Assembly: GCF_000332175.1 (NCBI RefSeq)
Contig: NZ_KB235914.1
Span: forward strand, 4,121,793 to 4,185,792
DNA from: Pseudanabaena sp. PCC 6802
GTDB taxonomy: Bacteria > Cyanobacteriota > Cyanobacteriia > Pseudanabaenales > Pseudanabaenaceae
Direction: 5' to 3'
Length of the DNA: 64,000 bases
Positions 1,872 through 53,791 of the stretch are shown here, one piece after another; within the stretch, counting starts at the first letter, position 1; each line of letters begins with the position of its first letter. The notes under the pieces are model-generated. The model was not told the origin of the DNA, did no database searches, and saw only the letters and a list, made by a program, of their open reading frames with translations. Position numbers and translations under genes: made by a program.

Positions 1872-2642
1872 TTAAACTTCAGGCTCAACCCCTAGTGCCC
1901 TTAACTGGGCTTTAAGCATTTCTACTTTCTGCTGCTCCTGCTCCGCGCGCTGACGCTCCTGCTCCGTGCGCTGACGCTCCTGTGCAATCTGCTCCTCTTG
2001 GGTGGGCAACCATACATTATTAGCATCGTACCAACGCAACCAGTCGGACTCTATGCCTTGATAAAACCCATGCCAAATGCCCAGCCCCAATTGCAATTCC
2101 TCAACCCAAAACCTGGCTGCTTCCCTATCTTGTTCGGTATATTTGCCGTTCTGCCATCTGAACTTGCGAAACTCGCTATTACGCTCGTCAAACGTGATAT
2201 AGTGTGGCACTTGCAAAATCTGTTCGTAAACCTCCCACTTAGTTGGAGGACTGCCAAGTTTGCGGACATTTCTCCCTAAATCCTCCGCCTCGGTACCTTC
2301 AGAGATCAACTCCACCACTAGTAAAGGACTCTTGCCTTCGTCCCATAGCACGTAGCTTTGGCGCATTTCTCGATCGCGATACAGTCGAGTCCCGTCCACC
2401 ACCACAAACCAATCGGGGCGTTTGTACCAGTTGAGATGGTCGAGGTCATAGTACAGATTGAGATCGCTGGCGATAAAAATGCGATCGCTCGGATAGTTAG
2501 GCGGCTGACAAGTTTGGCTGAGTACTTGTGGCTGATATAGATGGAATTCGTCAGGCAATCCTGAATCCTCTGGATAGTCGCTAGGCAGATCGTACATTGT
2601 TGGTTGTACTTTGCCTACGAGTGGCTTAATGGGTTGATACAT
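1872..2642 (-). CDS. Uma2-family (DUF820) putative restriction-endonuclease-like protein with C-terminal coiled coil
   Basis: Core LLVVELISEGTEAED...KWEVYEQILQVPHYITFD matches the Uma2 E...D...K motif pattern; QERQRTEQERQRAEQEQQK coiled-coil tail common in cyanobacterial copies. Confidence 0.7.
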   Translation of the reverse strand: MYQPIKPLVGKVQPTMYDLPSDYPEDSGLPDEFHLYQPQVLSQTCQPPNYPSDRIFIASDLNLYYDLDHLNWYKRPDWFVVVDGTRLYRDREMRQSYVLWDEGKSPLLVVELISEGTEAEDLGRNVRKLGSPPTKWEVYEQILQVPHYITFDERNSEFRKFRWQNGKYTEQDREAARFWVEELQLGLGIWHGFYQGIESDWLRWYDANNVWLPTQEEQIAQERQRTEQERQRAEQEQQKVEMLKAQLRALGVEPEV

Positions 2643-2723
2643 TATTGCTTTCTCCTAAGGGATTGAGTTAACCTAATGGCGATCTAAATAAGTAAAGGAT
2701 TGTAGCGATCGCTAAGCAATGTT

Positions 2724-3728
2724 ATGGTGGCTGACTTCGCCGGATGGCTGACCATTTTTTCTCTAGATCCAGCCGCTACGACTCTTGTAACTGCTAGTGT
2801 TATCGATTATATCGTAGGCGATCCGTGGGGATGGCCGCATCCGGTGAGGGTGATGGGATGGACGATCGCGATCGGGACAAAAGTAATATTGCACTACTGT
2901 AAAACTCCGCTAGCTCAGCGAATAGCTGGTGTCTTGCTGGCTATTGGCATTATTGGTGGTAGCGGATTTGTCAGTTGGGGATTAGTGTATCTGGCTTTAC
3001 GAGTCAACTACTGGTTGGGATTCTCTCTGCAATGCATTATGCTAGCTTCCTGTTTCGCTGGCAAGAGCCTTAGGGATGCCGCGATCGCCGTACTTTCTCC
3101 TCTGGAAGCAGGAAATCTCCAACGAGCGAGAGACGCTCTCAGTCTTTACGTGGGTAGAGATACTGAAAATCTCAATGAAGCAGAGATTCTACGAGCTGTG
3201 TTGGAAACTGTGGCTGAGAATTCTACCGACGGAGTTATCGCACCATTATTTTATGCCGCGATCGGTGGATTGCCATTAGCAATGGCTTACAAAGCTGCCA
3301 GCACTCTAGATTCCACGATCGGCTACAAGGAAAATCCCTATACTTACCTTGGGTGGTTTAGTGCCAAATTAGAAGATGTTTTAACCTGGCTACCTTGTCG
3401 CTATACCGTATTGTCCGTTGCAATATTTAGCGGTCACCCTTTAAGAGTCTGGCAAATCTGTTCTCGCGATGCCCCCCAAGATCCAAGCCCTAACTCTGGA
3501 TGGAGTGAATGTGCGTTTGCAGCCGCTCTGCAAGTGCAGCTAGGAGGCATAAATACTTACCGAGGTGTAGCTAAGCACAAGCCACTGTTAGGGAACGCGA
3601 TCGCACCCATAAAACCTGAGACGATTAAGCAGGCACTCCGACTAATGCAGCTCTGTATGTTTTTACTGCTGGCGATCGCTGTGGCTTTGATGGGGGTTGG
3701 GGGTTGGGGTTTAGCATCTGTTCGATAG
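2724..3728 (+). CDS. cobD: Adenosylcobinamide-phosphate synthase CobD/CbiB
   Basis: VIDYIVGDPWGWPHPVRVMG...AENSTDGVIAPLFYAAIGG...GYKENPY motifs typical of CobD/CbiB membrane protein. Confidence 0.85.
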   Translation: MVADFAGWLTIFSLDPAATTLVTASVIDYIVGDPWGWPHPVRVMGWTIAIGTKVILHYCKTPLAQRIAGVLLAIGIIGGSGFVSWGLVYLALRVNYWLGFSLQCIMLASCFAGKSLRDAAIAVLSPLEAGNLQRARDALSLYVGRDTENLNEAEILRAVLETVAENSTDGVIAPLFYAAIGGLPLAMAYKAASTLDSTIGYKENPYTYLGWFSAKLEDVLTWLPCRYTVLSVAIFSGHPLRVWQICSRDAPQDPSPNSGWSECAFAAALQVQLGGINTYRGVAKHKPLLGNAIAPIKPETIKQALRLMQLCMFLLLAIAVALMGVGGWGLASVR

Positions 3729-3791
3729 CCTTCGCATCAAACGCAAGCATTCATCGCAAATGCTAAACCCTTACTATCGGTTCCACTCGAT

Positions 3792-4578: not shown

Positions 4579-6756
4579 ATGGCTAAAATCAGGCCACCAC
4601 TCGAAGAAATGACTTTGCGCCAATTGCGTAGGGTTGCTCAGGAGTACGAAATTTCCCGCTATAGCCGTATGCGCAAGTCTCAATTGCTTGAGGCTATTTT
4701 GGCAGCAAAAGCTCAGAGGAATGAGTTGCACTCTCTTGGGCATCCCTCCCATCACAATATGGATATGCAAGAGATCGTAGAAGCCAAAAAATTTGATTTA
4801 GGAAGTGAGGAGCCAGTGTCCGTATTATTAACGCAGGTAGATGAAGCTTTAGGCGACCTACCAGGAGGTTATGGGGAAAGTCGGATTGTCCTAATGCCAA
4901 GAGATCCGCAATGGGCCTACGCATATTGGGACATTTCCAACTCTGAAAAAGAGAAAAAACGCCAGCAAGGTGGTCAAAAGCTAGCTTTACGTCTTTATGA
5001 CTCCACCGGGCTGAATTTGGATCGTCAAGTTCCTCACAGCGTTCAAGAATATGGCTGTGATGAGTTAGCTAGGGAATATTATCTGCAAATTCCAGTCAGC
5101 GATCGCGACTATATTGTTGAAATTGGCTATCGCTGTGCTGACGGTCGTTGGCTACCCATAGTTAAGTCGGCATCAGTACGCGTCCCTCCCATGTATCCAT
5201 CCGACTGGGTAGAAGATCATTTCATTACGGTTTCTTGGGAAAAGGGACTGAATGGAGAGAACCTGTTTGCACTGGTATCGCCCGATGGAATGGATACCGT
5301 TAACGAACTCGAGCCAGAGTCTGCCAATACCTTGGAAGCGCAGCACCTTGCAGGGTCCCTCCAGGAGCGATCGCAGATGTCTGGTGCGGGCATGATGGAA
5401 GAATCCGTGAGTTCTTACATTTTCCCATCGGGTATGGGGGCATGGGCTAGCGGCAGTGGCATGTCTGGTGTCGGTGCGTCTGGTGTTGGCACGTCCGGTG
5501 TTGCTATGTCTGGCGTTGGCATGTCCGGTGTTGGTATGTCCGGTGTCGGTATGTCTGGCGTTGGCATGTCTGGCGTTGGCATGTCCGGTGTCGGTATTTC
5601 CGGGGTCGGCATGTCTGGCGTTGGAGTTAGCCTATCCGGTATTGGTATGTCTGGGGTCGGCATGTCCGGGGTCGGTATGTCTGGCGTTGGAGTTAGCCTA
5701 TCCGGTATTGGTATGTCTGGCGTTGGCATGTCTGGCGTTGGTATGTCTGGCGTTGGCATGTCTGGCGTTGGCATATCCGGTGTCGGCATGATGTCCGGTG
5801 TCGGCATGATGTCCGGTGTCGGCATGATGTCCGGTGTCGGCATGATGTCCGGTGTCGGCATGATGTCCGGTGTCGGCATGATGTCCGGTGTCGGCATGAT
5901 GTCCGGTGTCGGTATGTCTGGTATTGGTGTTGGCATGTCCGGTATTGGTTTATCCGGTGTCGGTATGTCTGGTGTCGGCATGTCCGGTATTGGCGTTGGT
6001 ATGTCCGGTGTCGGTATGTCCGGTATTGGTGTTGGCATGTCCGGTGTCGGCATGTCTGGTGTCGGCATGTCTGGTATTGGTGTTGGCATGTCCGGTATTG
6101 GTTTATCCGGTGTCGGTATGTCCGGTGTTGGTATGTCCGGTATTGGCGTTGGTATGTCCGGTATTGGCGTTGGTATGTCCGGTGTCGGCATGTCTGGTAT
6201 TGGTTTATCCGGTGTCGGCATGTCCGGTATTGGCGTTGGTATGTCCGGTGTCGGCATGTCTGGTATTGGCGTTGGTATGTCCGGTGTCGGTTTATCCGGT
6301 GTCGGCATGTCTGGTATTGGCGTTGGCATGTCTGGTATTGGTTTATCCGGTGTCGGTATGTCTGGTGTTGGCATGTCTGGTGTCGGTATGTCTGGCGTGG
6401 GTCTGTATGGGCTTGGCATGTCTGGCATCGGCATGTCTGGCATCGGCATATTCTCTGGATCCGGTGTTCCGCAACGTCCTCGGCAGTTCTGGTTAATTGC
6501 CGATGCCGAGTTGATCGTTTATGGAGCCACAGAACCGGATGCCAATGTTACGATCGCCGGTCGTCCCATTGCCCTTAATCCTGATGGCACTTTCCGTTTT
6601 CACATGTCCTTCCAGGATGGTGTTATTGACTTCCCCATCTTTGCCGTAGCAGCCGATGGCGAACAAAATCGCTCTATTCACATGAAGTTTGAGCGTCAAA
6701 CACCTGAGCGTCGCACTAATACCAAAGAGGCAGCAGTGCCAGAGTGGATCGGATAG
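4579..6756 (+). CDS. Rho_N (Rho termination factor N-terminal) + DUF4912-like protein with giant (MSGVG)n low-complexity core
   Basis: LEEMTLRQLRRVAQEYEISRYSRMRKSQLLEAILAAK is a Rho_N motif; PRDPQWAYAYWDIS block recalls DUF4912; residues about 290-630 are tandem MSGVG/MMSGVG/MSGIGVG units; good SD (GGAGG) 8 nt before ATG. Confidence 0.8.
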   Translation: MAKIRPPLEEMTLRQLRRVAQEYEISRYSRMRKSQLLEAILAAKAQRNELHSLGHPSHHNMDMQEIVEAKKFDLGSEEPVSVLLTQVDEALGDLPGGYGESRIVLMPRDPQWAYAYWDISNSEKEKKRQQGGQKLALRLYDSTGLNLDRQVPHSVQEYGCDELAREYYLQIPVSDRDYIVEIGYRCADGRWLPIVKSASVRVPPMYPSDWVEDHFITVSWEKGLNGENLFALVSPDGMDTVNELEPESANTLEAQHLAGSLQERSQMSGAGMMEESVSSYIFPSGMGAWASGSGMSGVGASGVGTSGVAMSGVGMSGVGMSGVGMSGVGMSGVGMSGVGISGVGMSGVGVSLSGIGMSGVGMSGVGMSGVGVSLSGIGMSGVGMSGVGMSGVGMSGVGISGVGMMSGVGMMSGVGMMSGVGMMSGVGMMSGVGMMSGVGMMSGVGMSGIGVGMSGIGLSGVGMSGVGMSGIGVGMSGVGMSGIGVGMSGVGMSGVGMSGIGVGMSGIGLSGVGMSGVGMSGIGVGMSGIGVGMSGVGMSGIGLSGVGMSGIGVGMSGVGMSGIGVGMSGVGLSGVGMSGIGVGMSGIGLSGVGMSGVGMSGVGMSGVGLYGLGMSGIGMSGIGIFSGSGVPQRPRQFWLIADAELIVYGATEPDANVTIAGRPIALNPDGTFRFHMSFQDGVIDFPIFAVAADGEQNRSIHMKFERQTPERRTNTKEAAVPEWIG
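5440..6450. repeat. About 1 kb hierarchical tandem repeat (15-bp atgtcYggtgtYggY units; 7 perfect copies of 18-bp atgatgtccggtgtcggc at about 5780-5905; 36-bp sub-unit duplicated at about 5617-5716)
   Basis: Direct reading of the sequence; coding in-frame for MSGVG repeats on + strand, produces artefactual PDMPTPD ORF on - strand. Confidence 0.95.
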
Positions 6757-6846
6757 GTCACATCAAAACCTCATCTAGCTAAATCAGCTAATAGCAATGC
6801 GTCCCGACTAGAAGGTTCTGGTCGGGACGTTTGTTCTGTCTACAGC

Positions 6847-7003
6847 TATAGCACTTTTCAATTGAGAACGGGTTTTATTGATGGGGTGAAGGGGTTCCAC
6901 ACGGCAGTGGCTCTAGCAGGGAACCCCCAAGACCGCCCTGCCTCCCCTTCTTGGGGGCAATGCCCCCAAACCCCCTTCTCGTTTTCATCTGAAAACCGCT
7001 ATA
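6847..7003. repeat. MITE-like palindromic element, family A (TIR tatagcRN...NYgctata) with an extra inserted module
   Basis: Shares TIRs and ggggtgaaggggttccac / ttgggggcaatgcccccaa core with 30643..30754; carries an additional about 45-bp block (cacggcagtggctctagcagggaaccccc...) also present in element 12752..12909. Confidence 0.75.
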
Positions 7004-12635: not shown

Positions 12636-12751
12636 CTTGAGGGAAAGTTAAAGGACAGAAATTCTTGGCTCTCTTTAACCCTAAGCCAGAAATTCTAAGT
12701 TTGGTGGAACGATCCACAATTTTTCAGCAATAAGCATTTTGTTAGATTTGT

Positions 12752-12909
12752 TATACCAATTTAAATTGTTGTGGTTACGGATGGGGGGTGGAGGCAACGC
12801 CCCCACGAAGGGGAGGCAGGGCGGTCTTGGGGGTTCCCCGCTAGAGCCACTGCCGTGTGGAACCCCTTCACCCCGTTCGATCTGTCGTGTGTACTGTTCA
12901 AATTGGTAT
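12752..12909. repeat. MITE-like element, family A2 (TIR ataccaatttaaattgttgtgg / ctgttcaaattggtat) with inserted module
   Basis: Same TIRs and core as 46044..46156; contains the extra about 45-bp block shared with 6847..7003 in opposite orientation. Confidence 0.75.
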
Positions 12910-16456: not shown

Positions 16457-19400
16457 TCAACTTATCAGATCCCGAAATCTCGGATCGGTGCGAATGCGAT
16501 CGAAATCTGCATCTGTCTTTGCCATCTCTCGATACTGATCGGGATTGAGTTGAATCGCTCGTTGCAGATTCTCAAGAGCCAGATCGATGTCACCCAGCAA
16601 AGCATAAGCACAAGCTTTGTTGTAAGAGGGGTTAGGAGCGTCAGCTTTAATCTCAATGGCTTTGTCATAGGATGCGATCGCTTCTTCATAGCGTCCCAAA
16701 TAAGCGAGAGTAACACCTCGGCTGTCCCATGCTTCCTGTTTATCGGGTTTAATTTCAAGGGCTTTGTCATAGGATGCGATCGCATCCTCGTAGCGGCCCA
16801 AGCTAAATAGAGCATTACCTCTGAGGAAACATGCATCCTTGTGGTTGGGATTAATGGCAATTACTTTATCGTAGGAAGCAATTGCCTCTTCATAGCGTCC
16901 TAATTTCCCCAGAGTATTGCCTCGGTTGAACCATACGTCGGGGTTGTCGGGTTTAATCTCAAGGGCTTTGTCATAGGATGCGATCGCCTCTTCATAGCGT
17001 CCTAAGTCATTTAGAGCATTACCTCGGTTACCCCATGCTTCGTACTTATCGGGCTTGATTTCCAAGGCTTTATCATAGGAGGCAATCGCCTCTTCATTCC
17101 GTCCTAACTTTCTTAAGACAACACCTCGGTTATTCCAAGAATCATGGTTGTCAGTTTTGGTCTCTAAAGCCTTGCCATAAGAAGCTATCGCCTCTTCATA
17201 GTGACCCAAGTTATATAGAGCAAGGCCTAGGTTCTTCCATGCTTCGTGAGAGTCGGGTTTGATCTCAATAGCTTTTTCATAGGAAGCAAGCGCCTCCTCA
17301 TAGCGTTCCAAGTTAGCGAGAGCAAGACCTCGATTGTTCCATGCTTCATATTTGTCAGGTTTAATCTCTAGAGCTTTGTTGTAGGAAGCTATCGCCTCTT
17401 CGTAGCGTTCTAAGTTAACAAGAGCACTAGCTCGGTTGCTCCATACTTCGTGAGAATCCAGCTTTATCTCCAGTGTTTTGTCATAGGAAACGATCGCTTC
17501 TTCATCTCGTTCTAAGTCTTTTAGAGAATTTCCTCGGTTTTCCCATGCAGCGTTGTTAAATGGGTTTATCTCTAAAGCTTTATCATAGGAAGCGATCGCG
17601 TCTTCATTGCGCCCTAACCTTCTCAGAACAACGCCTCGATCGTTCCATGCAACGCTGTCATCGGGTTTTATCTCTAGAGCCTTGTCATAGGAAGCAAGTG
17701 CCTCTTCGTAGCGTTCCAAGTTAATAAGAATATTACCTCGGTTAATCCACGCGACTTGGTAATCGCTGTTAATTTCAACGACTTTATTATAGGAAGCTAT
17801 CGCCTCTTTATTGCGCCCTAACCTTCTCAGAACAACGCCTCGATTTTCCCATGCAATGTCGTCATCAGGTTTTATCTCTACAGCTTTGTCATAGGAAGCA
17901 AGTGCCTCTTCATAGCGTTCCAGGTCAACAAGAATATTGCCTCGGCAAACCCATGCATTCTGGTAATCGCAGTTAATTTCAACAGCCTTATTGTAGGAGG
18001 CAAGTGCCTCTTCATTCCGTCCTAAGTCTTTTAGAACATTGCCTCGGTTTTTCCATGCACCGTCGTAATTAGGTTTTATCTCTAATGCTTTATCGTAGGA
18101 AGCTACCGCCCCTTCATTCCGTCCTAGTTTTCTTAGGACAATACCTCGGTTGCTCCATGTATTGCAATCCTCAGGTTTTATCTCTAGGGCTTTATCGTAG
18201 GAAGCAAGTGCCTCTTCATAGCGTTCTAGGTCAGCAAGAATATTGCCTCGGCAAACCCATACATCCTGGTAATCGCTGTTAATTTCAACAGCTTTACTGT
18301 AGGAAGCAAGCGCCTCTTCATTCCGTCCTAAGTCTTTTAGAACATTGCCTCGGTTACCCCACGCTTCATACTTATCCGGTTTAATCTCTAAAGCTTTGTC
18401 ATGACAAGCAATTGCCTCTTCGTAGAATCTCATGTTTCTCAGAGTGCAACCTTTGTTATTCCAATCTTCGTGTGAATCCGGCTTAATCTCTAAAGCTTTT
18501 TCATAGGATGCGATCGCCTCTTCATGACGCGCCAAATTGTATAGTGCAAGGCCTCGGTTGCTCCATGCTTCGTGAAAGTCGGACTTAATCTCTACAACTT
18601 TGTCCCAAGAATCAAGTGCCTCTTCATCGCGTTCCAAACTATATAGAACATGACCTCGGCTGTACCATGCTTCATGGAAGTCAGGTTTTATCTCTAGAGC
18701 TTTATCAAAAGAAGCGATCGCATCCTCATAGCGTTCCAATTTATTGAGAGCAAAACCTCGACCGTACCATGCTTCATGGAAGTCAGGTTTTATCTCTATG
18801 ACTTTGTCCCAAGACGCGATCGCTTCCTCATAGCGTTCTAATTTATTGAGAGCAAGACCTTGGCCATACCATACCTCATAGAAGTCAGGTTTTATCTCTA
18901 TGACTTTGTCCCAAGACGCGATCGCCTCTTTATAACGTTTCAAACTATTATATAGAACACCACCTCTAATGTTCCATGCTTCATAGAAGTCGGGTTTTAT
19001 CTCAAGAGCTTTACCCAAAGACGAGATCGCATCCTCATAGCGTCCCAATTTATTGAGAGCAAGACCTCGACCGTGCCATGCTTCATGGAAGTCGGATTTT
19101 ATCTCGAGAGCTTTGTCCAAAGACGAGATCGCATCCTCATAGCGTCCCAAATTATATAGAATACTCCCTCGATCATGCCATGCTTCATGGAAGTCGGATT
19201 TTATCTCGAGAGCTTTGTCCAAAGAAGAGATTGCCTCGTCATAGCCTCGCAAGTCATGTAGAGCAAGACCTCGTCTATACCATGTCATGTATAAGTCAGG
19301 CTCGTTGTTTAAAGCTCTTTCCCACAAAGAGAGTGCCTCTTCGTAGAACCTTAATTCGTAAAATGAATTGCCTAAGTCCGCTAAAAGCATACCATTGGCG

Positions 19401-21316
19401 ATGAGCTGTTCTGCCTGTTCCTTAGCTAGGGAAAGTATTTCCTGACGCTTCACTTTTGTGCTCCGCTTGGCTTTATACAATAAGGCAGCAAACTTTGCTA
19501 TACCGTCCAGCCGATCTATTTGTTCAAAACAAACCTGTAGGGATCTCTCGATTTGCTGTTTGGACAGCCCAGCTTCTTTCTTAAGCTCATCCCATGGAAT
19601 CTCTTCTGAAGTAAAAATTACTCGCCCACGGAAAGTAACGGGCATGATATCTCTTAAGAATTTACTTGTTTCGTTGTCTATGATAGGGGAGCCTTGTGAA
19701 GACAGTCTTTCTCTCTGTAACGACAGGCCAATTTCTGAGTCAATTACAATGAGTACACTCGCTATTATATCATTGTGACCAAAATAACAAGTAGTGAATA
19801 AGTGAGAAAGAAATTGAAGCTGAAAATCTGCTTGATGTGCAAAAGCACTATGATAGAGAGAGCCTGTTACATATCCTCGCCAGCGATCGCTTCGATATTT
19901 CATGCTTGGTGGGCGATCCACTGCCACTTCTAAACTAGCCTCCCCATCGTAGAATTCTGCCAACGAATGATGGATTTGACAGAATTGCCTGCGATCGTCT
20001 ACATACATTTGCCTGCGAAATACATCCCTTGCCACATCATCGAAGCGGTACTTCCCCTGTACAAATTCCACAAAATATAGCTGCGTCAGCCACTCAAAGC
20101 AATCCTGGTTTTGGTCGGCAGCGGTCAAAAAATCTAATTGCTGCGATTCTGTCAAGTGTTTTACTAGCGATCGATCGAAGGAACGACAAAAAGATGCTAA
20201 TTGGATAATGGTTCTTTGCGTTCTACTGAAACCTTCCAACAGCAATTCTGCAATTTCCTTCTCCCCATGCGAAAAGTCGATCGCTTCTCCCCTATCAAGC
20301 TTTTGGCGAATCCAGTCCAAATATTTGGGTAACCCCTTTGTGACGCGAAATATAGTCTCCGAGTCAGTTGAGATATGACTCCGCTCGCGATAATCTTCTG
20401 TCTGCCCTGGATTAAATTTCTCAATCTTACATTTGTAGACTTGCCTCGATAGCTTATTCCAGCCCTCATTCTGTAGGTCATACCTCCCAGCCACTACAAT
20501 GCGGATTAGATGTTTTTGAATATCCGTATTACTGAGTAGCGATCTCCACAGCCAGACATCTATGTTCGGACATTCTGCCTCCGCCTTTTCGTAGGTATCC
20601 AGAATCAAGACGATCGCTTTGTTTAGTACCCTAGACCTCTGCTCCAAGCTGCTTACAAAAGCCGCCGTTAGTTGCGGTAGAGGATTTTGCATCAAGTCAA
20701 TGAGATTGTTTTTACCCTTAGTAGCGGAATGCTGCAACAATAAGTCTTTAGCAGTCAGAGTGGCAGCAGCTAATTGTACAATTCCTTCTCCTGCCTTTTC
20801 ACTTGTTGTCTTGTCCACTATTCCATGCGTGACTTTGGGCAAAACAAACCCCATCGCATTTTTTGCCAATTCGCGAACAGCCTTCATCTGGTCGGACTCG
20901 ACCGATTTTTTGCCTTCGATTGGTGAGGTTTGGAGTTGCTTTAAGGTGCTGTTGTACTGCTCGTAAAGCTTTAAAAATGGATCGCGAACCGCTGCGGGTA
21001 AATTTTTTATGTCTTGCGTTAGTAAATTCCCAGGTTGAGGTAGCCTTTGATATAGGTAATGCATCAAGGCAATCAGCGCTGGCATTTCTCCCCCTTTGCG
21101 CCATTCTGTCTCCCCAAACGAGACCGCTGCAAAGCTAGCTCTATCCTCAAAATTGCTTTGAAGTTTCTGTACGAGAGTTGATTTCCCTACGCCGCCAATG
21201 CCCCAAATGTGAAATAGTATTGGCTGGTTTTTTTGTGTTTGCAAAGCGCGGTCAAAGGCAGCTTGTAAATCTTCGTCCTCTTGCCGCAAGATGTAAAGGG
21301 GAGATGGCTCTGGCAA
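16457..21316 (-). CDS. STAND (NB-ARC/NACHT-like) P-loop NTPase fused to about 28 TPR repeats
   Basis: Walker A HIWGIGGVGKSTLVQKL at residue about 38; about 600-aa helical NTPase region; then 34-aa units (YEEAIASYDKALEIKPDxxEAWxNRG) to the C-terminus. Confidence 0.85.
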   Translation of the reverse strand: MPEPSPLYILRQEDEDLQAAFDRALQTQKNQPILFHIWGIGGVGKSTLVQKLQSNFEDRASFAAVSFGETEWRKGGEMPALIALMHYLYQRLPQPGNLLTQDIKNLPAAVRDPFLKLYEQYNSTLKQLQTSPIEGKKSVESDQMKAVRELAKNAMGFVLPKVTHGIVDKTTSEKAGEGIVQLAAATLTAKDLLLQHSATKGKNNLIDLMQNPLPQLTAAFVSSLEQRSRVLNKAIVLILDTYEKAEAECPNIDVWLWRSLLSNTDIQKHLIRIVVAGRYDLQNEGWNKLSRQVYKCKIEKFNPGQTEDYRERSHISTDSETIFRVTKGLPKYLDWIRQKLDRGEAIDFSHGEKEIAELLLEGFSRTQRTIIQLASFCRSFDRSLVKHLTESQQLDFLTAADQNQDCFEWLTQLYFVEFVQGKYRFDDVARDVFRRQMYVDDRRQFCQIHHSLAEFYDGEASLEVAVDRPPSMKYRSDRWRGYVTGSLYHSAFAHQADFQLQFLSHLFTTCYFGHNDIIASVLIVIDSEIGLSLQRERLSSQGSPIIDNETSKFLRDIMPVTFRGRVIFTSEEIPWDELKKEAGLSKQQIERSLQVCFEQIDRLDGIAKFAALLYKAKRSTKVKRQEILSLAKEQAEQLIANGMLLADLGNSFYELRFYEEALSLWERALNNEPDLYMTWYRRGLALHDLRGYDEAISSLDKALEIKSDFHEAWHDRGSILYNLGRYEDAISSLDKALEIKSDFHEAWHGRGLALNKLGRYEDAISSLGKALEIKPDFYEAWNIRGGVLYNSLKRYKEAIASWDKVIEIKPDFYEVWYGQGLALNKLERYEEAIASWDKVIEIKPDFHEAWYGRGFALNKLERYEDAIASFDKALEIKPDFHEAWYSRGHVLYSLERDEEALDSWDKVVEIKSDFHEAWSNRGLALYNLARHEEAIASYEKALEIKPDSHEDWNNKGCTLRNMRFYEEAIACHDKALEIKPDKYEAWGNRGNVLKDLGRNEEALASYSKAVEINSDYQDVWVCRGNILADLERYEEALASYDKALEIKPEDCNTWSNRGIVLRKLGRNEGAVASYDKALEIKPNYDGAWKNRGNVLKDLGRNEEALASYNKAVEINCDYQNAWVCRGNILVDLERYEEALASYDKAVEIKPDDDIAWENRGVVLRRLGRNKEAIASYNKVVEINSDYQVAWINRGNILINLERYEEALASYDKALEIKPDDSVAWNDRGVVLRRLGRNEDAIASYDKALEINPFNNAAWENRGNSLKDLERDEEAIVSYDKTLEIKLDSHEVWSNRASALVNLERYEEAIASYNKALEIKPDKYEAWNNRGLALANLERYEEALASYEKAIEIKPDSHEAWKNLGLALYNLGHYEEAIASYGKALETKTDNHDSWNNRGVVLRKLGRNEEAIASYDKALEIKPDKYEAWGNRGNALNDLGRYEEAIASYDKALEIKPDNPDVWFNRGNTLGKLGRYEEAIASYDKVIAINPNHKDACFLRGNALFSLGRYEDAIASYDKALEIKPDKQEAWDSRGVTLAYLGRYEEAIASYDKAIEIKADAPNPSYNKACAYALLGDIDLALENLQRAIQLNPDQYREMAKTDADFDRIRTDPRFRDLIS

Positions 21317-21982: not shown

Positions 21983-22705
21983 CTAGCCTCCCATTTCCCG
22001 CTGAATCCGCTCTAAGTCCCGCTTCACCTCAAAGCAAAGCTCGCGGTTGCCTGGATCGGTATTCATAGCTTTGGTGAGGTAAGCTTCAGCTTCCTTCAAC
22101 TTGCCAGCCACAAGTAACTCGCTACCGCGACGTTGGTAGGTAACGGCTTGCCAATGAACCACCTCAGGCGCATTTTTATAGCGCTCTCGCAAACCCTCAG
22201 CAATGGCGATCGCCACCACATATTTCTTTTGCTTTAATAACTCCATCAGCCGCCCCAACATATCGACTTTTAGCCTTACTTCTGGATCTGTGGCGATCGG
22301 GTCTTGCTTTTGCCGAACTTCTTTGGTTTCGATCTTGATTTTAGGTTGGGGGTTGGAAGTTTTAGTTTTTTGGGGTTGGGGGTTGGGTTTAGGTTGAGGG
22401 TTAGGGGTTGGGGGTTGGGGGTTGGGAGTTTTAGTTTTTTGGGGTTGGGGGTTGGGTTTGGGTTGGGGAGATGAAGTAGGTGTGCGGGATGCACGGGATT
22501 GTGGTTGTGGCATCACGCCAGCGGCTGCATCTTTTAAAATTTGATATGCCTCCTGCACGAGACGAAACTTGTCGGCGGCGGCGGGGTCGCCCTGGTTGAC
22601 ATCGGGATGGTACTTGCGTGCCATGCGACGATAGGCAACCTTGACATCTTCAGGCGAAGCATTACGGGGTAACCCCAGCAATCTATAGCATTCCGAAAGT
22701 TGCAT
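21983..22705 (-). CDS. J-domain (DnaJ-like) protein with PNPQP-rich linker
   Basis: YRLLGLPRNASPEDVKVAYRRMARKYHPDVN J-domain with HPD; (PNPQP/QKTKT) repeats encoded by ggttgggg tandem DNA repeats. Confidence 0.8.
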   Translation of the reverse strand: MQLSECYRLLGLPRNASPEDVKVAYRRMARKYHPDVNQGDPAAADKFRLVQEAYQILKDAAAGVMPQPQSRASRTPTSSPQPKPNPQPQKTKTPNPQPPTPNPQPKPNPQPQKTKTSNPQPKIKIETKEVRQKQDPIATDPEVRLKVDMLGRLMELLKQKKYVVAIAIAEGLRERYKNAPEVVHWQAVTYQRRGSELLVAGKLKEAEAYLTKAMNTDPGNRELCFEVKRDLERIQREMGG

Positions 22706-22914: not shown

Positions 22915-23514
22915 TTGACTGAGGTGAAGCTTGATTCTTACCCTGACTATTCTTTTGCGATTCGTTTGCCATCTCTAAAAATTCTTGCAATGACTAACAT
23001 TAGACTTACCTATGAGTATACTTTAAACTCAATTAAGGTTGTAGATGAAAGTATTGATAAAATAAACACAAAGCTTGCCATAGTTATTACTCTCAGTGGA
23101 GTTCTAGTTAACTTTGGGAAGGACTTACCCGGCTATTCTACAACCATATGTGAAAAAGTTAATTACCCTTGCCCAGCTTGCTATTTCATGAAGCTGGCAG
23201 CATATGTCTGCATTATCATTGCTATTGGACTAGGTTTATGGGGATTATCGCCTGCTAGCGCTGGTAAGATAGTCTTGCCAGAACAGCTACTTATGGATGA
23301 GTGGAATCTAGCAAGTGAAGAAGATTACATGACTGCGCTAATTCAATATTTAGAGAAAGAAACACTGCTAGTACTCAACAAAATTCGAGATAAAAAAGCT
23401 AGCACGCTAGATTGCGCTGTTCGCTTCATAGCAGCTTCTGTCGTACTGTTAATCTTAGATGAAATCTTAGTAACTTCTATCCCGATACTTGGGAAGCTTT
23501 GCCTGAACCTGTAA
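22915..23514 (+). CDS. Hypothetical membrane protein in AT-rich island
   Basis: ORF with 2-3 hydrophobic segments; markedly AT-rich relative to flanks; no recognised domain. Confidence 0.4.
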   Translation: MTEVKLDSYPDYSFAIRLPSLKILAMTNIRLTYEYTLNSIKVVDESIDKINTKLAIVITLSGVLVNFGKDLPGYSTTICEKVNYPCPACYFMKLAAYVCIIIAIGLGLWGLSPASAGKIVLPEQLLMDEWNLASEEDYMTALIQYLEKETLLVLNKIRDKKASTLDCAVRFIAASVVLLILDEILVTSIPILGKLCLNL

Positions 23515-23623
23515 TTGCGACTTTGAATTAGGGCAAATTGCTCTAAGAATTAATTTAACAAAGTATAAATACTTAGTGCTTTTACTGCTTCTGAATTTAA
23601 CCGCAAGCTCCTTAGCTCTCATT

Positions 23624-24625
23624 CTAAATTTGGCACTTTGATTCAAGAAGGCAAGGACGATCGGAGTCGCCGACTTCGATTTGAACAGTGGCATGGTGAA
23701 TGCCGAAGCGATCGCGTAACTCTTGAGCAATCTGAGTCAGAAACATATCGCCTGGATGTCCTGTAGGGATAACTAGATGGGCTGTCAAAGCAGTTTCCAC
23801 CGTACTCATGCTCCAAATGTGTAAGTCATGTACCTGAGCTACGCCCGAGTGCTCGGAGAGATAGGTACGAACCGCACGTTCGTCAATGTTATGCGGGACT
23901 CCATCAATTGCCAGGTGAAACGAATCTTTTAATAGTCCCCAAGTGCCGAACACGATCGCAAAACTGATAATCAAGCTAACTGCTGGATCTAGCCATAACC
24001 AGTGGGTAAACAAAATGGCAATGCCTGCTATAACTACGCCCAGCGATACCATTGCATCTGCCATCATGTGTTGAAATGCAGCTCGAATATTCAGGTCTCC
24101 TTTACGACCTGACAAAAACATCAAGGCCGTGCCAGTATTAATTGCAATGCCAACAATCGCAACTCCGATTACGATCGCACCATTCACCTCACCAGGATGA
24201 ACTAGTCGCTGAATGGCCTCCCAAATAATTCCACCTGTTGCAACCAGCAGAAAGACAGCATTGAGAAAAGCAGCGAGAACCGATGACTTGCGCCATCCAT
24301 AGGTGTATCGAGCAGAGGGCTGACGACGAGCCAACAAACTTGCAATCCATGCCAGCAATAACCCTAAAACATCGCTGAGGTTATGTCCTGCATCTGCAAT
24401 AAGCGCCACCGAGTTAGCCAGAACTCCAAAGATAAGCTCTGTGACGACAAATCCTCCGTTCAGTAGCAGCCCCAAAACAAAAGCCCGATTGTAATTGGTA
24501 GAGTGATGCCCGCGATCGCCATGGGAATGTTCGTGGTGATTATGTGCATGTTTATGACCATGTCGATGTGTCATAAATTCAAGATCCCAAATGTTGCCAG
24601 AGAATCGATAAAGTTCCCCTAGCAT
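23624..24625 (-). CDS. Cation diffusion facilitator (CzcD-type) metal efflux transporter with His-rich N-terminus
   Basis: HGHKHAHNHHEHSHGDRGHH tract then CDF TM motifs (LIADAGHNLSDV...); alternative ATG at 24574. Confidence 0.85.
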   Translation of the reverse strand: MLGELYRFSGNIWDLEFMTHRHGHKHAHNHHEHSHGDRGHHSTNYNRAFVLGLLLNGGFVVTELIFGVLANSVALIADAGHNLSDVLGLLLAWIASLLARRQPSARYTYGWRKSSVLAAFLNAVFLLVATGGIIWEAIQRLVHPGEVNGAIVIGVAIVGIAINTGTALMFLSGRKGDLNIRAAFQHMMADAMVSLGVVIAGIAILFTHWLWLDPAVSLIISFAIVFGTWGLLKDSFHLAIDGVPHNIDERAVRTYLSEHSGVAQVHDLHIWSMSTVETALTAHLVIPTGHPGDMFLTQIAQELRDRFGIHHATVQIEVGDSDRPCLLESKCQI

Positions 24626-25082: not shown

Positions 25083-25538
25083 CTACAACAAAAGCTGAAA
25101 TTCCTTAAGGGCAGGCACGAAGTTACTATTCTCGTGGCTGGAACGACTGAGCTTAATCAAGACAAACCGTTGTAAAGGCAGCAGACCTGCCCACTGTGCT
25201 GGGGAAAGTACTGCCCCTACTTCTTGTAATTTTGCCTGCACTTCCGCAGGGATATTTTGCGCGTCTTCCCAGGCAGGCTCAGGATCGATGGTTAGCGGGG
25301 TGGCGCGATCGCCAGTACATTCCCGTATCAAATCCTGGAGGAACTGATGGTAGTTTTGCACCTCTGGTTGAGTCTTGCAGGGCATGTCTACTAAAAGTTG
25401 GCGCTGGGCGCGGCTAAATTTATGCCATTCTGCTAGTTTGAGCTTGATGCCGCAGGTATCTAACTTAAACCGCACTTGCATTGGAATGCAACGCAGCGAT
25501 TCCACAAAGTCAGCTTCAAAGTTAAATAGATCGTTCAT
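25083..25538 (-). CDS. Nitrate reductase-associated protein family (TIGR02664-like), tentative
   Basis: MNDLFNFEADFVESLRCIPMQVRFKLDTCGIKLKLAEW resembles the conserved N-terminus I recall for this family; start at ATG 25538 (track start 25559 is TTG). Confidence 0.5.
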   Translation of the reverse strand: MNDLFNFEADFVESLRCIPMQVRFKLDTCGIKLKLAEWHKFSRAQRQLLVDMPCKTQPEVQNYHQFLQDLIRECTGDRATPLTIDPEPAWEDAQNIPAEVQAKLQEVGAVLSPAQWAGLLPLQRFVLIKLSRSSHENSNFVPALKEFQLLL

Positions 25539-25710
25539 GTGGTGTGCTGCCAGACCCAACCTGTTAATAACCCTACAACTTTTAAACTAATTTGGGTAGA
25601 TTTCCCTACTCTAACAAACCTGAGATTCGGGGTTATGATGAGGTCAGATTGTAGGTGTGTTTGCGCATACACTTAGAGTCAACAGTTTTGAACGGTAAGG
25701 GCAACTAGTT

Positions 25711-26082
25711 ATGAGATTCTATACGTTTGGCAACGGCGGCGGCAATGAAGATCGATTTGCAGGTCTGCGATTCTGGCTTACCGTATTTTTAGTAATTTGG
25801 GGCTTGAGCGCCCTCGGTCTTGGCTGGCTGGTTGATTCGTTGTTTATTTTGATCGCGATCGCTACAGTCGCTCCCATAGTTGCATTCTTTGGCCTCCAGT
25901 GGTGGGTGAAGCGCAGCATTATCACTTCAGAATGCCCGGTATGCGGTCATGTTTCCATGGCATCTCGCAACAGCCAGTTTAACTGCCCCAGTTGTGGCGA
26001 ACTTTTGCAGGTGGAGAAGCAAAAGTTCGTACGATTTACGCCACCAGGGACGATTGACGTAGAGGTACAGGCAGTTGATTAG
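25711..26082 (+). CDS. Hypothetical membrane protein with C-terminal zinc-ribbon (CPVCGH...CPSCGE)
   Basis: Two TM segments followed by CxxC...CxxC. Confidence 0.45.
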   Translation: MRFYTFGNGGGNEDRFAGLRFWLTVFLVIWGLSALGLGWLVDSLFILIAIATVAPIVAFFGLQWWVKRSIITSECPVCGHVSMASRNSQFNCPSCGELLQVEKQKFVRFTPPGTIDVEVQAVD

Positions 26083-26083
26083 T

Positions 26084-26181
26084 TGGGTGATGGGTGATGG
26101 GCGATGGGTAATGGGCGATGGGCGATGGGCGATGGGTGATGGGTGATGGGTAATGGGCGATGGGTGATGGGTGATGGGCGA
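26084..26181. repeat. Heptanucleotide tandem repeat (GGGTGAT/GGGCGAT/GGGTAAT) x14, STRR-like
   Basis: Direct reading; starts 1 nt after stop of preceding ORF. Confidence 0.95.
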
Positions 26182-26213
26182 TAACGCAGGGGTTTCGCAT
26201 TTGTCCGACCATC

Positions 26214-26258
26214 TTTGCATCAAACCCAAGCATTAGTGACAAATGCTAAACCCTTACT
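26214..26258. repeat. Dispersed about 45-bp hairpin repeat (tYYgcatcaaacNcaagcatt..caaatgctaaacccttact); second copy at 3731..3775
   Basis: Two near-identical copies each immediately downstream of an ORF stop; internal palindrome agcatt/aatgct. Confidence 0.8.
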
Positions 26259-26380
26259 TACCGTTCGTTCCATACCGTTTGCCATCCCCATACCGTTCGT
26301 TCCATACTGTTTGCCATCCCCATACCGTTCGTTTCATACCATTTGCCATCCCCATACCGTTCGTTCCATACCAGCCGATC
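26259..26380. repeat. 32-bp tandem repeat x about 3.6 (cataccgttcgttccataccgtttgccatccc)
   Basis: Direct reading; contains internal 11-bp sub-repeat ccataccgttY. Confidence 0.9.
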
Positions 26381-26415
26381 GCTGACAGCTATTTATTCCC
26401 TACCGTAAAAGAAGC

Positions 26416-27894
26416 GTGGATATCTATTGCACCCGTCCTGGCTGCCCTAAGCCGCTTAACTCGTTTGCCGATCTCGATACTAGCGGCACGATTAAAACTA
26501 TTACGCAAAAGTTTTGTACTAGCTGTGGTATGCCACTCATCCTCGGCGGTCGGTATATTACAGAGAAACCTCTAGCCAGGGGTGGGTTTGGCGCAACTTT
26601 TACCGCAGTCGATCGCTACACGCCTTCGATGCGGCGCTGCGTGGTGAAGCAACTGTTGCCGATCGGGTTAAATCCCAAGCAAATGCAATTTGCCAAAGAA
26701 TTATTCGAGCGTGAAGGTACAGTACTGGATCGGTTGGGCGGGCACCCCCAAATTCCTGACTTACTAGCTTTTTTTGAGGTGCAAGCACCATCGCGCAGTC
26801 CCGCCAATCCCGATCAGTTTTTTTATCTGGTACAGGAATTTATTGACGGGCTGACATTAGAGCAGGTAGTAGAGCAGCACGGCGCACTGAAAGAAGACGA
26901 AGTATTGGAGATTATGACTAGCCTGCTTCCTGTTTTGCAGTTCGTCCATGAAAGCAACTCTATTCACCGCGATATCAAACCCTCGAATATTATGGTGCGC
27001 CCGCAGGATGGCAGATATTTCCTGCTTGATTTTGGAGCGGTGAAGTTGGTGACCGCAGCAGCGGCAGGGCAGAAATCTACAGGTATCTTTACCCCAGGGT
27101 TCGCGGCACCGGAACAAATGCGGAGCGATGCAGTTTTTCCTTCTACCGACTTGTATGCATTTGCAGTCACCTGCATTTATCTGCTCACGGCCATGCAACC
27201 TGAGGATCTATTCGATCCGGCCACGAATAGCTGGAACTGGCGATCGCATGTAGTTGTAAGTTCGCAACTTGCCAATATCTTAAATAAGATGTTAGCCAAT
27301 GCCCCCAGCGATCGCTTCAGTTCGGCAGCGGAAGTATTAGCTGTCCTAACTGGCTCTCAGCAAGCAGTTTCACCTACTCCATCTAAACCAATTGCCCCCA
27401 CAGCCCCCTCTACTCCTCCAATTTCCATCATCCCCTCTAACCCCCAACCAACCCCCAACCCCCAACCCCCAGCCCCCGTCGCTCGCCAGGTACCGCATCC
27501 TCGCCCAGTTCGGCCTCCATCGCCACCCTTGGTTTTACCACCTCTGGGCAATCAGCTATTCGCTGCTTTTCTGATGGGATTTGAGGGAATGGCATTGGGG
27601 ATTATTGCCCATAGCGTCGGCTTAGCTTTAATCGGCCCATTTAGCTATGCCATCCTGGCTGGAGTAATGCTGGCATTTCTGTGGCTGCGCTCCAGTCAGA
27701 TTATGGATAACAAGGATTTGCTATTTCTAGTTGGGATCACCGCACTTTTGTTGTGGCTGAGTAAGATATTTCTCAACTGGGCAACCCCACCTTTACCAGA
27801 TATGTTTCTATTAGCTGCGATCGCGGGGTTTGCTACAGTAGCGATTATTACTTTATTCCGTCTGGTCTACCAGACCATCTACAGTCTGCTGTGA
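26416..27894 (+). CDS. Ser/Thr protein kinase with N-terminal zinc ribbon and C-terminal transmembrane region
   Basis: CTRPGC...CTSCG zinc ribbon; GGFGATF, VVKQL, HRDIKPSNIMV, DFG, APE all intact; Pro-rich (PNPQP) linker; 3-4 hydrophobic helices at C-terminus; GTG start. Confidence 0.85.
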   Translation: MDIYCTRPGCPKPLNSFADLDTSGTIKTITQKFCTSCGMPLILGGRYITEKPLARGGFGATFTAVDRYTPSMRRCVVKQLLPIGLNPKQMQFAKELFEREGTVLDRLGGHPQIPDLLAFFEVQAPSRSPANPDQFFYLVQEFIDGLTLEQVVEQHGALKEDEVLEIMTSLLPVLQFVHESNSIHRDIKPSNIMVRPQDGRYFLLDFGAVKLVTAAAAGQKSTGIFTPGFAAPEQMRSDAVFPSTDLYAFAVTCIYLLTAMQPEDLFDPATNSWNWRSHVVVSSQLANILNKMLANAPSDRFSSAAEVLAVLTGSQQAVSPTPSKPIAPTAPSTPPISIIPSNPQPTPNPQPPAPVARQVPHPRPVRPPSPPLVLPPLGNQLFAAFLMGFEGMALGIIAHSVGLALIGPFSYAILAGVMLAFLWLRSSQIMDNKDLLFLVGITALLLWLSKIFLNWATPPLPDMFLLAAIAGFATVAIITLFRLVYQTIYSLL

Positions 27895-27916: not shown

Positions 27917-29800
27917 TTACAGGCTTAATCTTCTACCTATCTCCCAAATGCCGATTGTTTTATCTTTACTGGTAGTTGCGAGAGAGAAACCCCGATCGGG
28001 GGCGATCGCCCTAACTGCTAGATCGAAAATAGAATCCTGGTGACCTTCTAATACAGCCAATTCCTCGCCAGTTTCAATATCCCAAAGTTTTATTTTTTTA
28101 TCCCAACTCGCACTTAATAGTAGGGTTTTGGAATTGGGTAAAAAAGCAATGCAGGAAACCGACCAACTATGCCCGGATAGATTGCGTAGCAATTGATGGG
28201 TTTTTAAGTCCCAAATCTTAATATCTTTGCCATCGCCAGCACTGGCTAGAATGCTGGCATCGGCATTAAAAGCCACGGATTTAATCGCCCAATTGTGCCC
28301 CTTTAAACTATGCTTTAACTCCCAATTATCAGTTTGCCAAATCTTCACTATGCGGTCTTGAGATGCACTTGCCAATAGAGGCGATCCGATCGCAAATTGC
28401 ACGTCAGTTACGGCTAAGCTATGTGCTGCTAAAGTGGTAATTAGCTCTTTAGTTTGGCGATCCCAAATTCTTATTTTTTTATCAATATGAGCGCTGGCTA
28501 GCATGGGAAGACCAGGATGAAGGGCGATCACAGCTACTCCACTGCCCGTGTCTAATTCGTGGACGATATCGCTATCTGCATTGCGACCGCCGTTCCAACG
28601 CCAGAAATAGATCTTACCTTTACGATCGCCACTAATTAAGATATTGGTATTTGGAACGAATTTAATATCTGCGATCTGCCCCTGATGCCCGTATAGATTT
28701 ACAATCCTGTCCCCTGTTTCTACTTCCGAGATCGAGATCTTTTTGTCCTCACCACCACTGGCGATAAACTTGCCATCGTCGCTATAATCAATGCAATTCA
28801 GTCCTGCGAAAAGTTCCTCGTCAGCGCGCAGAAACTTCTGACAGGTCCAGGTATATTCGAGTGCGTCCTGGTGCCTTTTCTTGCGAGCGATCGCGCTTTC
28901 CCAATCTGTGACGCTACATCCCATCATGCGTAAAACATCTGACGGAGAGCGCAGCCTTCGATCGAGATCTGGGACAATTAACTTATCGATTAACTCGCCT
29001 AATCTCTCGCGGCGATCGCTATTTACTTCTGCTTTGCTAATTTGCCAATTATCCCGCCATACCCAGCTACGATCGATCGTATTGAAGACATCGAAGGGGC
29101 GCAATCCTGTCAACAGATATACACAAACTAAACCCAAACTATAAAGATCGCTCGCAAAACACACTGTCCCTTCCAAACTTTCTGGCGCTGAAAATTCAGC
29201 AGAACCAGAGTATATATCCAGAGAAGTATCAGACTGAATATTGCGATCGCCTTTAACTTTGGTTAAGCTCATCCAATCCACTAAAATAAACTTATTTAGC
29301 TTATCTGAATAAATAATATTTTGCGGTTCGATTTCTCGATGAATTAACTTGTAACTGTGCAGATGATGTAGAACGGGCAGGATATTGAGGAGAACTTGCC
29401 AAACGCGATCGACCGCAAAAGTGCCAGAGCGATTTACCAATGTTTCCAGATTATTACCTTCGATAAATCCTCTTACCAAATAGCAATAACTATCTGTCTC
29501 AAAGCTATCGATATAATCGGGAATATCAGGATGCGGTTCGATCTCTTTTAGATAAGTAACGAGGCGGTTGAAATAGTTATTGTAGGGGTTATCTTTGTGA
29601 ATTTGTCTTAGAATACAAGAATTGGTATTGAGGCGATCGCTGACTCGAAAAACCTGACTGCGATTATTTTTATGTAAAATCGCGATCGCTTGATAGCGAT
29701 CTTTCAGACTTAAAGCAGCTCCGCAGTTGTGGCAAAACTGAGAGTCATTATCTCGATTAATTTGCAAACAATTGGGATTGAAACAGTATACCCTTGGCAT
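27917..29800 (-). CDS. Predicted pseudokinase (degenerate STK domain) with N-terminal zinc ribbon and C-terminal WD40 beta-propeller
   Basis: CFNPNC...CHNCG zinc ribbon; kinase-like fold but HRD replaced by HREIEPQN, no beta3 Lys (CILRQI), DFG replaced by DWM; about 7 WD40 units (GHxxxV...WD). Confidence 0.8.
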   Translation of the reverse strand: MPRVYCFNPNCLQINRDNDSQFCHNCGAALSLKDRYQAIAILHKNNRSQVFRVSDRLNTNSCILRQIHKDNPYNNYFNRLVTYLKEIEPHPDIPDYIDSFETDSYCYLVRGFIEGNNLETLVNRSGTFAVDRVWQVLLNILPVLHHLHSYKLIHREIEPQNIIYSDKLNKFILVDWMSLTKVKGDRNIQSDTSLDIYSGSAEFSAPESLEGTVCFASDLYSLGLVCVYLLTGLRPFDVFNTIDRSWVWRDNWQISKAEVNSDRRERLGELIDKLIVPDLDRRLRSPSDVLRMMGCSVTDWESAIARKKRHQDALEYTWTCQKFLRADEELFAGLNCIDYSDDGKFIASGGEDKKISISEVETGDRIVNLYGHQGQIADIKFVPNTNILISGDRKGKIYFWRWNGGRNADSDIVHELDTGSGVAVIALHPGLPMLASAHIDKKIRIWDRQTKELITTLAAHSLAVTDVQFAIGSPLLASASQDRIVKIWQTDNWELKHSLKGHNWAIKSVAFNADASILASAGDGKDIKIWDLKTHQLLRNLSGHSWSVSCIAFLPNSKTLLLSASWDKKIKLWDIETGEELAVLEGHQDSIFDLAVRAIAPDRGFSLATTSKDKTIGIWEIGRRLSL

Positions 29801-53690: not shown

Positions 53691-53791
53691 ACTATAGCCA
53701 ATAGGCTTAGGACGGGGTGCAGGGGTGGAACCCCTGCGTGGGGGCGCAGCCCCCACACCCCCTGTCCTAACAGATTCTGTCTACGGCTATA
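53691..53791. repeat. MITE-like element, family B
   Basis: ctatagccaataggcttaggacggggtgcaggggtggaacccctgcgtgggggcgcagcccccacaccccctgtcctaa...ctacggctata. Confidence 0.8.

Follow-up and report, generated by a model that had tools for sequence, protein, structure and literature searches.

A REP/MITE-like palindrome with flanking tandem repeats in the spacer between a zinc-ribbon gene and a Ser/Thr kinase gene of a Pseudanabaena-like cyanobacterium

The DNA analysed here (the window, 64 kb in all) carries on its + strand a gene for a small membrane protein followed by a gene for a Ser/Thr protein kinase, with a spacer of 333 nt between the stop codon of the first and the GTG start codon of the second. 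An earlier reading of the window from its letters alone (the sequence-only reading) had described three repeat types in this spacer, and all three proved to be real by TRF and blastn. The spacer and its flanking genes comprise the following features, to which a second copy of the central element elsewhere in the window, with its own short array, is added at the end of the list.

25711-26082, + strand: upstream gene (open reading frame) for a membrane protein of 123 aa whose C-terminal part is a zinc ribbon, assigned to no Pfam family
26084-26182, + strand: heptanucleotide tandem array of 14 TGGGYGA units, including two TGGGTAA; G-rich sense strand; STRR-like
26186-26257, + strand: REP/MITE-like palindromic element, recognized by its fold, a paralogue, orthologues, and copies in cyanobacteria and metagenomes
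26186-26189 and 26190-26205, + strand: degenerate tag GCAG and 5' arm (GGGTTTCGCATTTGTC) of the element
26206-26237, 26238-26253 and 26254-26257, + strand: loop, 3' arm (GACAAATGCTAAACCC) and TTAC (reverse complement GTAA) of the element
26259-26372, + strand: C-rich tandem array, 3.6 copies of the 32-nt unit TACCGTTCGTTCCATACCGTTTGCCATCCCCA
26373-26415, + strand: start-proximal segment conserved in the clade, CCGATCGC..ATTCCCTAC.GT.AAA.AAGC
26416-27894, + strand: gene for a Ser/Thr protein kinase (Pfam Pkinase, 1.1e-30), starting at GTG and encoding a Cys-rich N-terminus
3703-3774, + strand: second copy of the palindrome (copy A), between convergent cbiB-like and psb27-like genes
3691-3709, + strand: short heptamer array (TGGGGGT / GTTGGGG, 2.7 copies) directly 5' of copy A, from TRF and the sequence itself

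The Pkinase match confirms the earlier placement of the spacer upstream of a Ser/Thr kinase gene. The two flanking genes are conserved partners: the upstream protein has 151 homologues in Pseudanabaenaceae and other cyanobacteria, those with names including Pseudanabaena and Thalassoporum PCC 7367, and its gene is followed by a Pkinase gene in loci L012, L014, L022, L025 and L028 and in PCC 7367. The kinase motif GTGGATATCTATTGCAC is kept in all relatives. An alignment of the last 70 nt before the GTG in the window, L012 and L014 defines the conserved start-proximal segment, which probably carries the ribosome-binding region of the kinase gene and possibly holds its promoter. A second Ser/Thr kinase gene, fused to WD40 and located at 27917-29800 on the - strand, converges on the first, their stop codons being 22 nt apart.

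Two open reading frames that cross the repeats, 25927-26229 (-) and 26243-26575, had been called spurious, and very likely they are. Neither has a Pfam match; the first is antisense to the conserved upstream gene, the second overlaps the kinase start in a different frame, and both span arrays whose length differences among relatives are not multiples of 3. An annotation of the region should omit both, start the kinase gene at the GTG of 26416, and mark the spacer as a REP/MITE-like palindrome that has simple repeats on its flanks.

The heptamer array was reported by TRF with a period of 7, 14.1 copies, 88% matches and a score of 142; the maximum reached in 20 shuffles of the window that preserved dinucleotides was 77. 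The earlier description of fourteen GGGYGAT heptamers starting 1 nt past the preceding stop is right in its count and in its starting point (the array begins 1-2 nt after the TAG at 26080-26082), but that consensus fits only 12 of the 14 units, which comprise six TGGGTGA, six TGGGCGA and two TGGGTAA. By TRF and by its intergenic position, the array consists of head-to-tail 7-nt units in non-coding DNA of a cyanobacterium, as STRRs do. The heptanucleotide repeats of cyanobacteria known as STRRs were reportedly described by Mazel in 1990. The array resembles them, and long simple heptamer repeats generally, in being a tandem of 7-nt units that is non-coding, lies near a gene end and varies in number among lineages. 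Its unit TGGGYGA (reverse complement TCRCCCA) appears to differ from the consensus units of the classical STRR1-3 (CCCCAGT, TTGGTCA and CAACAGT). Unlike the classical STRRs, it belongs to a Pseudanabaena-like host without heterocysts and abuts a REP-like hairpin. Heptanucleotide repeats are reported to be the commonest class of long simple repeats in most surveyed bacterial genomes (Mrazek 2007, summarised in PMC4679880).

G-rich and C-rich heptamer arrays (GGGGTTG and CCAACCC) also occur within coding sequence of the window, at 22370-22468 and 27439-27477. The first lies inside a 240-aa open reading frame that matches the DnaJ gene of L012 by size and position only; the second lies in the sequence for the Pro-rich linker of the kinase, PNPQPTPNPQPP.

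The C-rich array on the other side of the palindrome had been described as a 32-bp unit repeated about 3.6 times in tandem, and TRF returns the same figure (26259-26372, 3.6 copies, 93% matches), with a score of 207 against the same shuffle maximum of 77. Each 32-nt unit is made of a 14-nt and an 18-nt sub-unit, and TRF gives periods of 14 and 18 nt as well. The hexamer TTGCCA is present in every unit, and one unit scores as a 9/12 promoter-like match.

Between the two arrays lies a hairpin with a stem of 16 bp (GGGTTTAGCATTTG.. / ..CAAATGCTAAACCC) and a loop of about 32 nt. The sequence-only reading had noticed it as a dispersed hairpin repeat of 45 bp with another copy at 3731-3775. The dispersed repeat is real, but 45 bp is too short: the interval sits inside a match of 78 nt between 26189-26266 and 3706-3783 (79% identity; blastn E=4e-15). 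The two hairpins of the window fold at -22.6 and -25.8 kcal/mol, with z scores of -4.3 and -4.1 against shuffles. No third copy was found in the 64-kb window by nhmmer or by a search for the arms; the interval 56401-56424, considered as a third copy, was set aside as coding sequence with only a partial loop and 3' arm (nhmmer E=0.05). Searches of the whole window against Rfam at gathering score gave no match in the spacer, and at E<=10 only chance-level matches were obtained over 25900-26600. No terminator-like site was identified in 25500-26700; the stem is followed by CUUACUUACC, with no U-tract. The possibility that the whole spacer forms one long palindrome, the G-rich heptamers pairing with the C-rich array, was also considered and discarded: the RNA fold reaches -132.9 kcal/mol at a z score of only -2.4, and the left and right flanks are no more complementary than their base composition gives (z 1.2-2.7; between 14 and 68 of 500 shuffles did as well).

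Both copies of the hairpin in the window are intergenic, and a G-rich heptamer array is found on the same side of each. At copy A, the last unit of the array overlaps the start of the element (GTTGGGG GTTGGGG TTTAGC). The cbiB-like open reading frame (2724-3728, +) runs through these heptamers, which encode ..GVGGWG.., and its stop at 3728 lies within copy A, so that the insertion of copy A seems to have supplied the final codons and the stop of the cbiB-like gene.

The arms of the hairpin are widespread in cyanobacteria. When genomes were scanned for the 3' arm, the same arms, joined by unrelated loops, came up in Scytolyngbya, Leptolyngbya and an Oscillatoriophycideae MAG; an exact 18-mer has one match apiece in three cyanobacterial genomes. 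With both arms, 72 loci were found in metagenomes. Among 63 distinct members of this family, stem positions 1-16 are paired in 90-100%, and the 16-bp stem is nearly invariant, covariation being confined to positions 15-16. GTAG or GTGG stands directly 5' of the stem (at 0 nt, on one strand) in 71 hairpin copies, from nearly all of the 72 loci. In the metagenome elements, conservation starts exactly at this tag and extends for 180-245 nt, and the full unit of 185-245 nt consists of GTAG, the first hairpin, a linker, a second hairpin (GGGCGAAGCATTCCC...GGGAATGCTTCGCCC) and CTAC.

A Y1 (RAYT-type) transposase gene adjoins the hairpin in two of the 72 metagenome loci. One of these (L098) encodes a 178-aa Y1_Tnp protein at 651-1187 on the - strand (27.6 bits; cut-off 23) and has hairpin copies at 458-522 and 1208-1273, within about 20 nt. 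The other (L051) contains a frameshifted Y1_Tnp homologue at 2563-3097, 73-80% identical, about 130 nt from the hairpin copy at 3230-3295. There is no RAYT gene within the 64-kb window.

The GTAG tag of the metagenome loci, together with the Y1 gene beside the hairpin in two of them, identifies the hairpin as REP/MITE-like. Long REPs tagged with GT[AG]G, and subclasses of TnpA_REP, have been described in cyanobacteria (PMC3733652, PMC6006769). The present family resembles the REP/REPIN and RAYT systems (PMC3733652, PMC6006769, PMC3116915) in being an extragenic palindrome with a GT[AG]G tag on its 5' side and conserved arms, and in having two copies that flank a Y1_Tnp gene, as seen in L098 and not in the window. 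Its basal stem of 16 paired positions falls within the 7-20 nt given for REPs, but its loop of about 32 nt exceeds the published 2-5 nt (PMC6006769), published REPs having either such a short loop or a bulged long hairpin. Unlike REPs, the hairpin is in other organisms often one half of the 185-245-nt two-hairpin unit, which is MITE-like; the window copies are without the second hairpin. A GTAG or GTGG tag 0-2 nt 5' of the stem, expected of a REP, is present in the family and absent from both window copies, whose tags are GCAG (26186-26189) and GTTG (3703-3706), with GTAA on the opposite strand. To judge from these features, the window hairpin is best classed as a tag-degenerate member of a REP/MITE-like family.

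The arms GGGTTTAGCATTTG / CAAATGCTAAACCC look like the mark of a widespread cyanobacterial REP family, which could coincide with one of the published families GTAG-12, GTAG-15 or GTAG-16. A literature search for the arm sequences found no relevant paper. The interest of the family lies in its arms, which are near-invariant across distant cyanobacteria, tagged with GTAG and found beside Y1 transposase genes.

Homologues of the upstream gene were looked up by exact protein sequence, which led to the same gene pair in several lineages, and each spacer was measured from the stop codon to the conserved GTG. The lengths, with the amino acid identity of the upstream protein to that of the window, are as follows.

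Window: 333 nt
L012, L013: 435 nt; 99%
L014-L021: 169 nt; 91%
L022: 80 nt; 78%
L028: 92 nt; 81%
L026: 179 nt; 83%; a different hairpin inside
PCC 7367: 460 nt; 64%; AT-rich and repeat-free

Among these spacers, the hairpin and the heptamers are limited to the clade of the window, L012 and L014; neither the arrays nor the hairpin are present in the next clade of relatives, with spacers of 80-92 nt, or in PCC 7367. The sequence-only reading had expected the copy number of the repeats to vary. Between lineages it does: there are 14 heptamers in the window, about six in L012 and about three in L014. The 32-nt array belongs to the window alone (3.6 units, against none in the orthologues), its position being taken in L012 by a degenerate C-rich tract with a 17-nt repeat of 2.9 copies and in L014 by nothing. 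Within a lineage no variation was seen: the spacers of the eight contigs L014-L021 are identical, as are those of the two contigs L012 and L013, all from different samples, in consensus assemblies that would hide minor length variants. In DNA identity to the flanking genes of the window, L012 stands at 89-93.5% and L014 at 85.5-86.5%; the lineages that differ in their arrays thus count, by a DNA divergence of 7-15%, as species-level relatives rather than isolates.

When the hairpins of the window, L012 and L014 are compared, 0-1 of the 33 arm positions differ, against 6-9 of the 32 loop positions. Synonymous differences in the flanking genes of the same three lineages amount to a proportion of 0.25-0.50, and the comparison indicates that the loop drifts at an approximately neutral rate and that the arms are held constant. 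Another heptamer, TAGCTTT, is repeated three times in L028 (782-810) and in L029, which are without the hairpin, and starts at the stop codon of the upstream gene. This independent array at the same position suggests that the site is prone to slippage.

Other differences among the relatives lie upstream of the spacer. The window has genes for a PycTM-domain protein (22915-23514) and for cation efflux (23624-24625) that are absent at the matching position of L012. The L014 lineage has instead an IS605 tnpB, with the Nitr_red_assoc gene on one side of it and the zinc-ribbon gene on the other. This stretch (22915-24625) is an indel hotspot. A link of the spacer element to the IS605 TnpB was rejected, the tnpB of L014-L017 being beyond the far side of the upstream gene and pointing away. 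An IS200 element that adjoins the kinase gene of PCC 7367 likewise gave no link, its hairpins being unrelated.

Membership of the hairpin in a pan-cyanobacterial REP/MITE-like family explains most of the anatomy of the spacer, which is an ordinary type of feature, a combination of a REP/MITE-like palindrome, a cyanobacterial heptamer microsatellite and a minisatellite, all of known kinds. Probably, it is a fast-evolving composite built around one such palindrome, with arrays that were later expanded by slippage at its flanks. In the sequence of events that we infer, an element with a 16-bp stem and a loop of about 32 nt was inserted, in the ancestor of the window's clade, between the zinc-ribbon and kinase genes, in a spacer that was then only about 80-90 nt long. 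The low-complexity flanks would then have grown and shrunk by replication slippage or unequal recombination, the 5' flank giving rise to G-rich heptamers and the 3' flank to C-rich sequence of the CCGTT type; the outcome would be 14 heptamers and a 32-nt minisatellite in the window, and other arrays in each of the other lineages. The hairpin family itself is recognised by sequence, and a Y1 (RAYT-type) transposase that acts on the single-stranded hairpin probably mobilises or maintains it. No dedicated function of the spacer would be called for, and any effect on the kinase gene would be a by-product: perhaps a block to read-through or a stable hairpin in a read-through transcript, stabilisation of the 3' end of the upstream mRNA, an effect of the quadruplex-pattern matches in the heptamers, or displacement of upstream sequence from the start-proximal 43 nt.

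A comparable association is known from Porphyromonas gingivalis, in which a MITE contains a minisatellite (PMC4596501); this is likewise a small non-coding element of a mobile type joined to a variable tandem array. Unlike in that MITE, the arrays of the window lie on either side of the palindrome, with no terminal inverted repeats around them. Each lineage has arrays of its own, and they therefore do not give the impression of having been transposed with the element.

Three points stand against the composite reading. The arms could be so strongly conserved because the hairpin serves some function of the host. The heptamers on the same side of both copies are not predicted by independent slippage, and suggest that arrays are linked to the element end. 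The copies in the window are without an exact GTAG, and the 64 kb contain only the two copies and no RAYT.

The first of these points leads to an explanation that we consider rather unlikely, although several observations agree with it: the hairpin may be an RNA or DNA structure selected by the host, either a 3'-end stabiliser for the upstream gene or a terminator-like barrier that insulates the kinase gene from read-through, with the arrays as passengers. Both window copies lie just past a + strand gene, copy A between convergent genes, and the copies in L005 and L007 are likewise situated just after gene ends; the stem is stable and conserved far above the loop or synonymous sites. REPs and MITEs have been reported to stabilise or destabilise mRNAs (PMC3733652), and roles of this kind have been described for enterobacterial REPs. 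The empty terminator scan and the missing U-tract argue against a terminator-like barrier, the hairpin belongs to no Rfam family, and close relatives are without the element in the same spacer. Arms that are conserved in sequence, with almost no covariation (a single covarying pair in one analysis, positions 15-16 in another), are more readily explained by a protein that recognises them than by a role in structure alone.

The second point would be accounted for if the tandem arrays were generated by the element itself and not by independent slippage, which is improbable. The 7-nt end of the element, comprising the tag and the first three bases of the stem (GTAGGGG; here GTTGGGG and GATGGGY), would have been tandemly re-duplicated, either through stalling at the hairpin or through nicking and rejoining by the Y1 transposase, and the 3' flank of the element, TACCGTTCGTTCCA, could have seeded the 32-nt minisatellite. 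This explanation draws on the G-rich heptamers found on the same side of both window copies, on the array of copy A that runs into the stem, and on an unrelated metagenome copy (L035) in which three GGGATGA units abut the GTAG tag. As a general rule the association of heptamers with the hairpin was rejected: L035 is the only case in 72 metagenome loci, so that the association is lineage-specific at most. If arrays do arise in this way, REP-type hairpins would be local generators of micro- and minisatellites, and hence of variation in expression, in the intergenic regions of cyanobacteria.

The composite reading is also preferred to regulatory tuning by the repeats, which is not favoured. The sequence-only reading had suggested that the arrays could tune promoter spacing or leader structure through their copy number; as a contingency-type rheostat for kinase expression they are decidedly improbable. 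The differences in copy number across lineages are of the kind expected of a rheostat, the arrays immediately precede the conserved start-proximal segment, and the 32-nt units offer their TTGCCA hexamers and one promoter-like match. There is precedent for expression levels that are set by repeats in a 5' untranslated region, such as the AGAT repeats of uspA2 (cited in PMC4679880). Known contingency repeats, such as TAACTGA heptamers upstream of start codons (PMC4679880), are similar in that short tandem repeats precede a gene, here a kinase (regulatory) gene. They are dissimilar in several respects: the arrays of the window begin at the preceding stop codon and are separated from the kinase start by at least 43 nt of conserved sequence, the identical spacers of eight contigs from eight samples of one lineage and of two contigs of another show no variation within a lineage, and most relatives with the same gene pair are without arrays. 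The lineages that do differ are 7-15% diverged in DNA, and a promoter scan found four sites, which is at background (2.0 +/- 1.5 expected). With arrays that are not conserved (the 32-nt array as well as the quadruplex potential of the heptamers), no variation within lineages, a promoter scan at background and no quadruplex in the orthologues, this explanation is poorly supported.

The same G-rich heptamers could be imagined to form a G-quadruplex, at the DNA or the RNA level, through which transcription or translation across the spacer would be controlled. The array has 15 GGG tracts separated by 4-nt loops, and the quadruplex pattern G3N1-7 was matched at 11 overlapping starts on the sense strand, but the motif follows directly from the repeat unit, and a scan of the orthologous spacers of L012 and L014 gave zero matches, which makes such control very improbable.

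Looked up by its exact protein sequence, the kinase was found in no other assembly. The upstream gene had as its sole exact match an independent short-read Logan contig (L001), which is identical to the window across the stretch common to both, and so offers no comparison of strains, and which ends inside the 32-nt array. That the counts of heptamers and 32-nt units are artefacts of repeats collapsed or expanded in the source assembly is hardly credible, for although the break in L001 leaves the count of 3.6 without a second confirmation, the contig agrees base for base with the window over the 14 heptamers, the hairpin and 1.5 units at the start of the 32-nt array, and the arrays are shorter than a typical read.

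The same gene pair, separated by spacers of 80-460 nt with and without the element and the arrays, constitutes a natural series for the effects of insertions on a downstream signalling gene.

The window contains several other repeats. A second dispersed family has at least eight copies in the 64 kb, on both strands (6843-7003, 12742-12874, 30642-30769, 38636-38708, 39380-39452, 46033-46123, 47650-47736 and 53692-53775). Its members are built of two G/C hairpins (GGGGGC-NNNN-GCCCCC and GGGGTGGAACCCC) and a flank of about 40 nt with CTATAGC, and the family looks like another MITE family, commoner in the window than the hairpin element. Two long tandem arrays are located in coding sequence. Within an open reading frame at 4579-6756 (+), about 60 copies of a 15-nt unit (5457-6449) encode a long low-complexity (G-M/V-S-G-V/I)n tract of a 725-aa protein. 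Within another at 16457-21316 (-), which encodes 1619 aa, about 25 tandem units of 102 nt (16646-19273) each correspond to 34 aa, the length of a TPR repeat.
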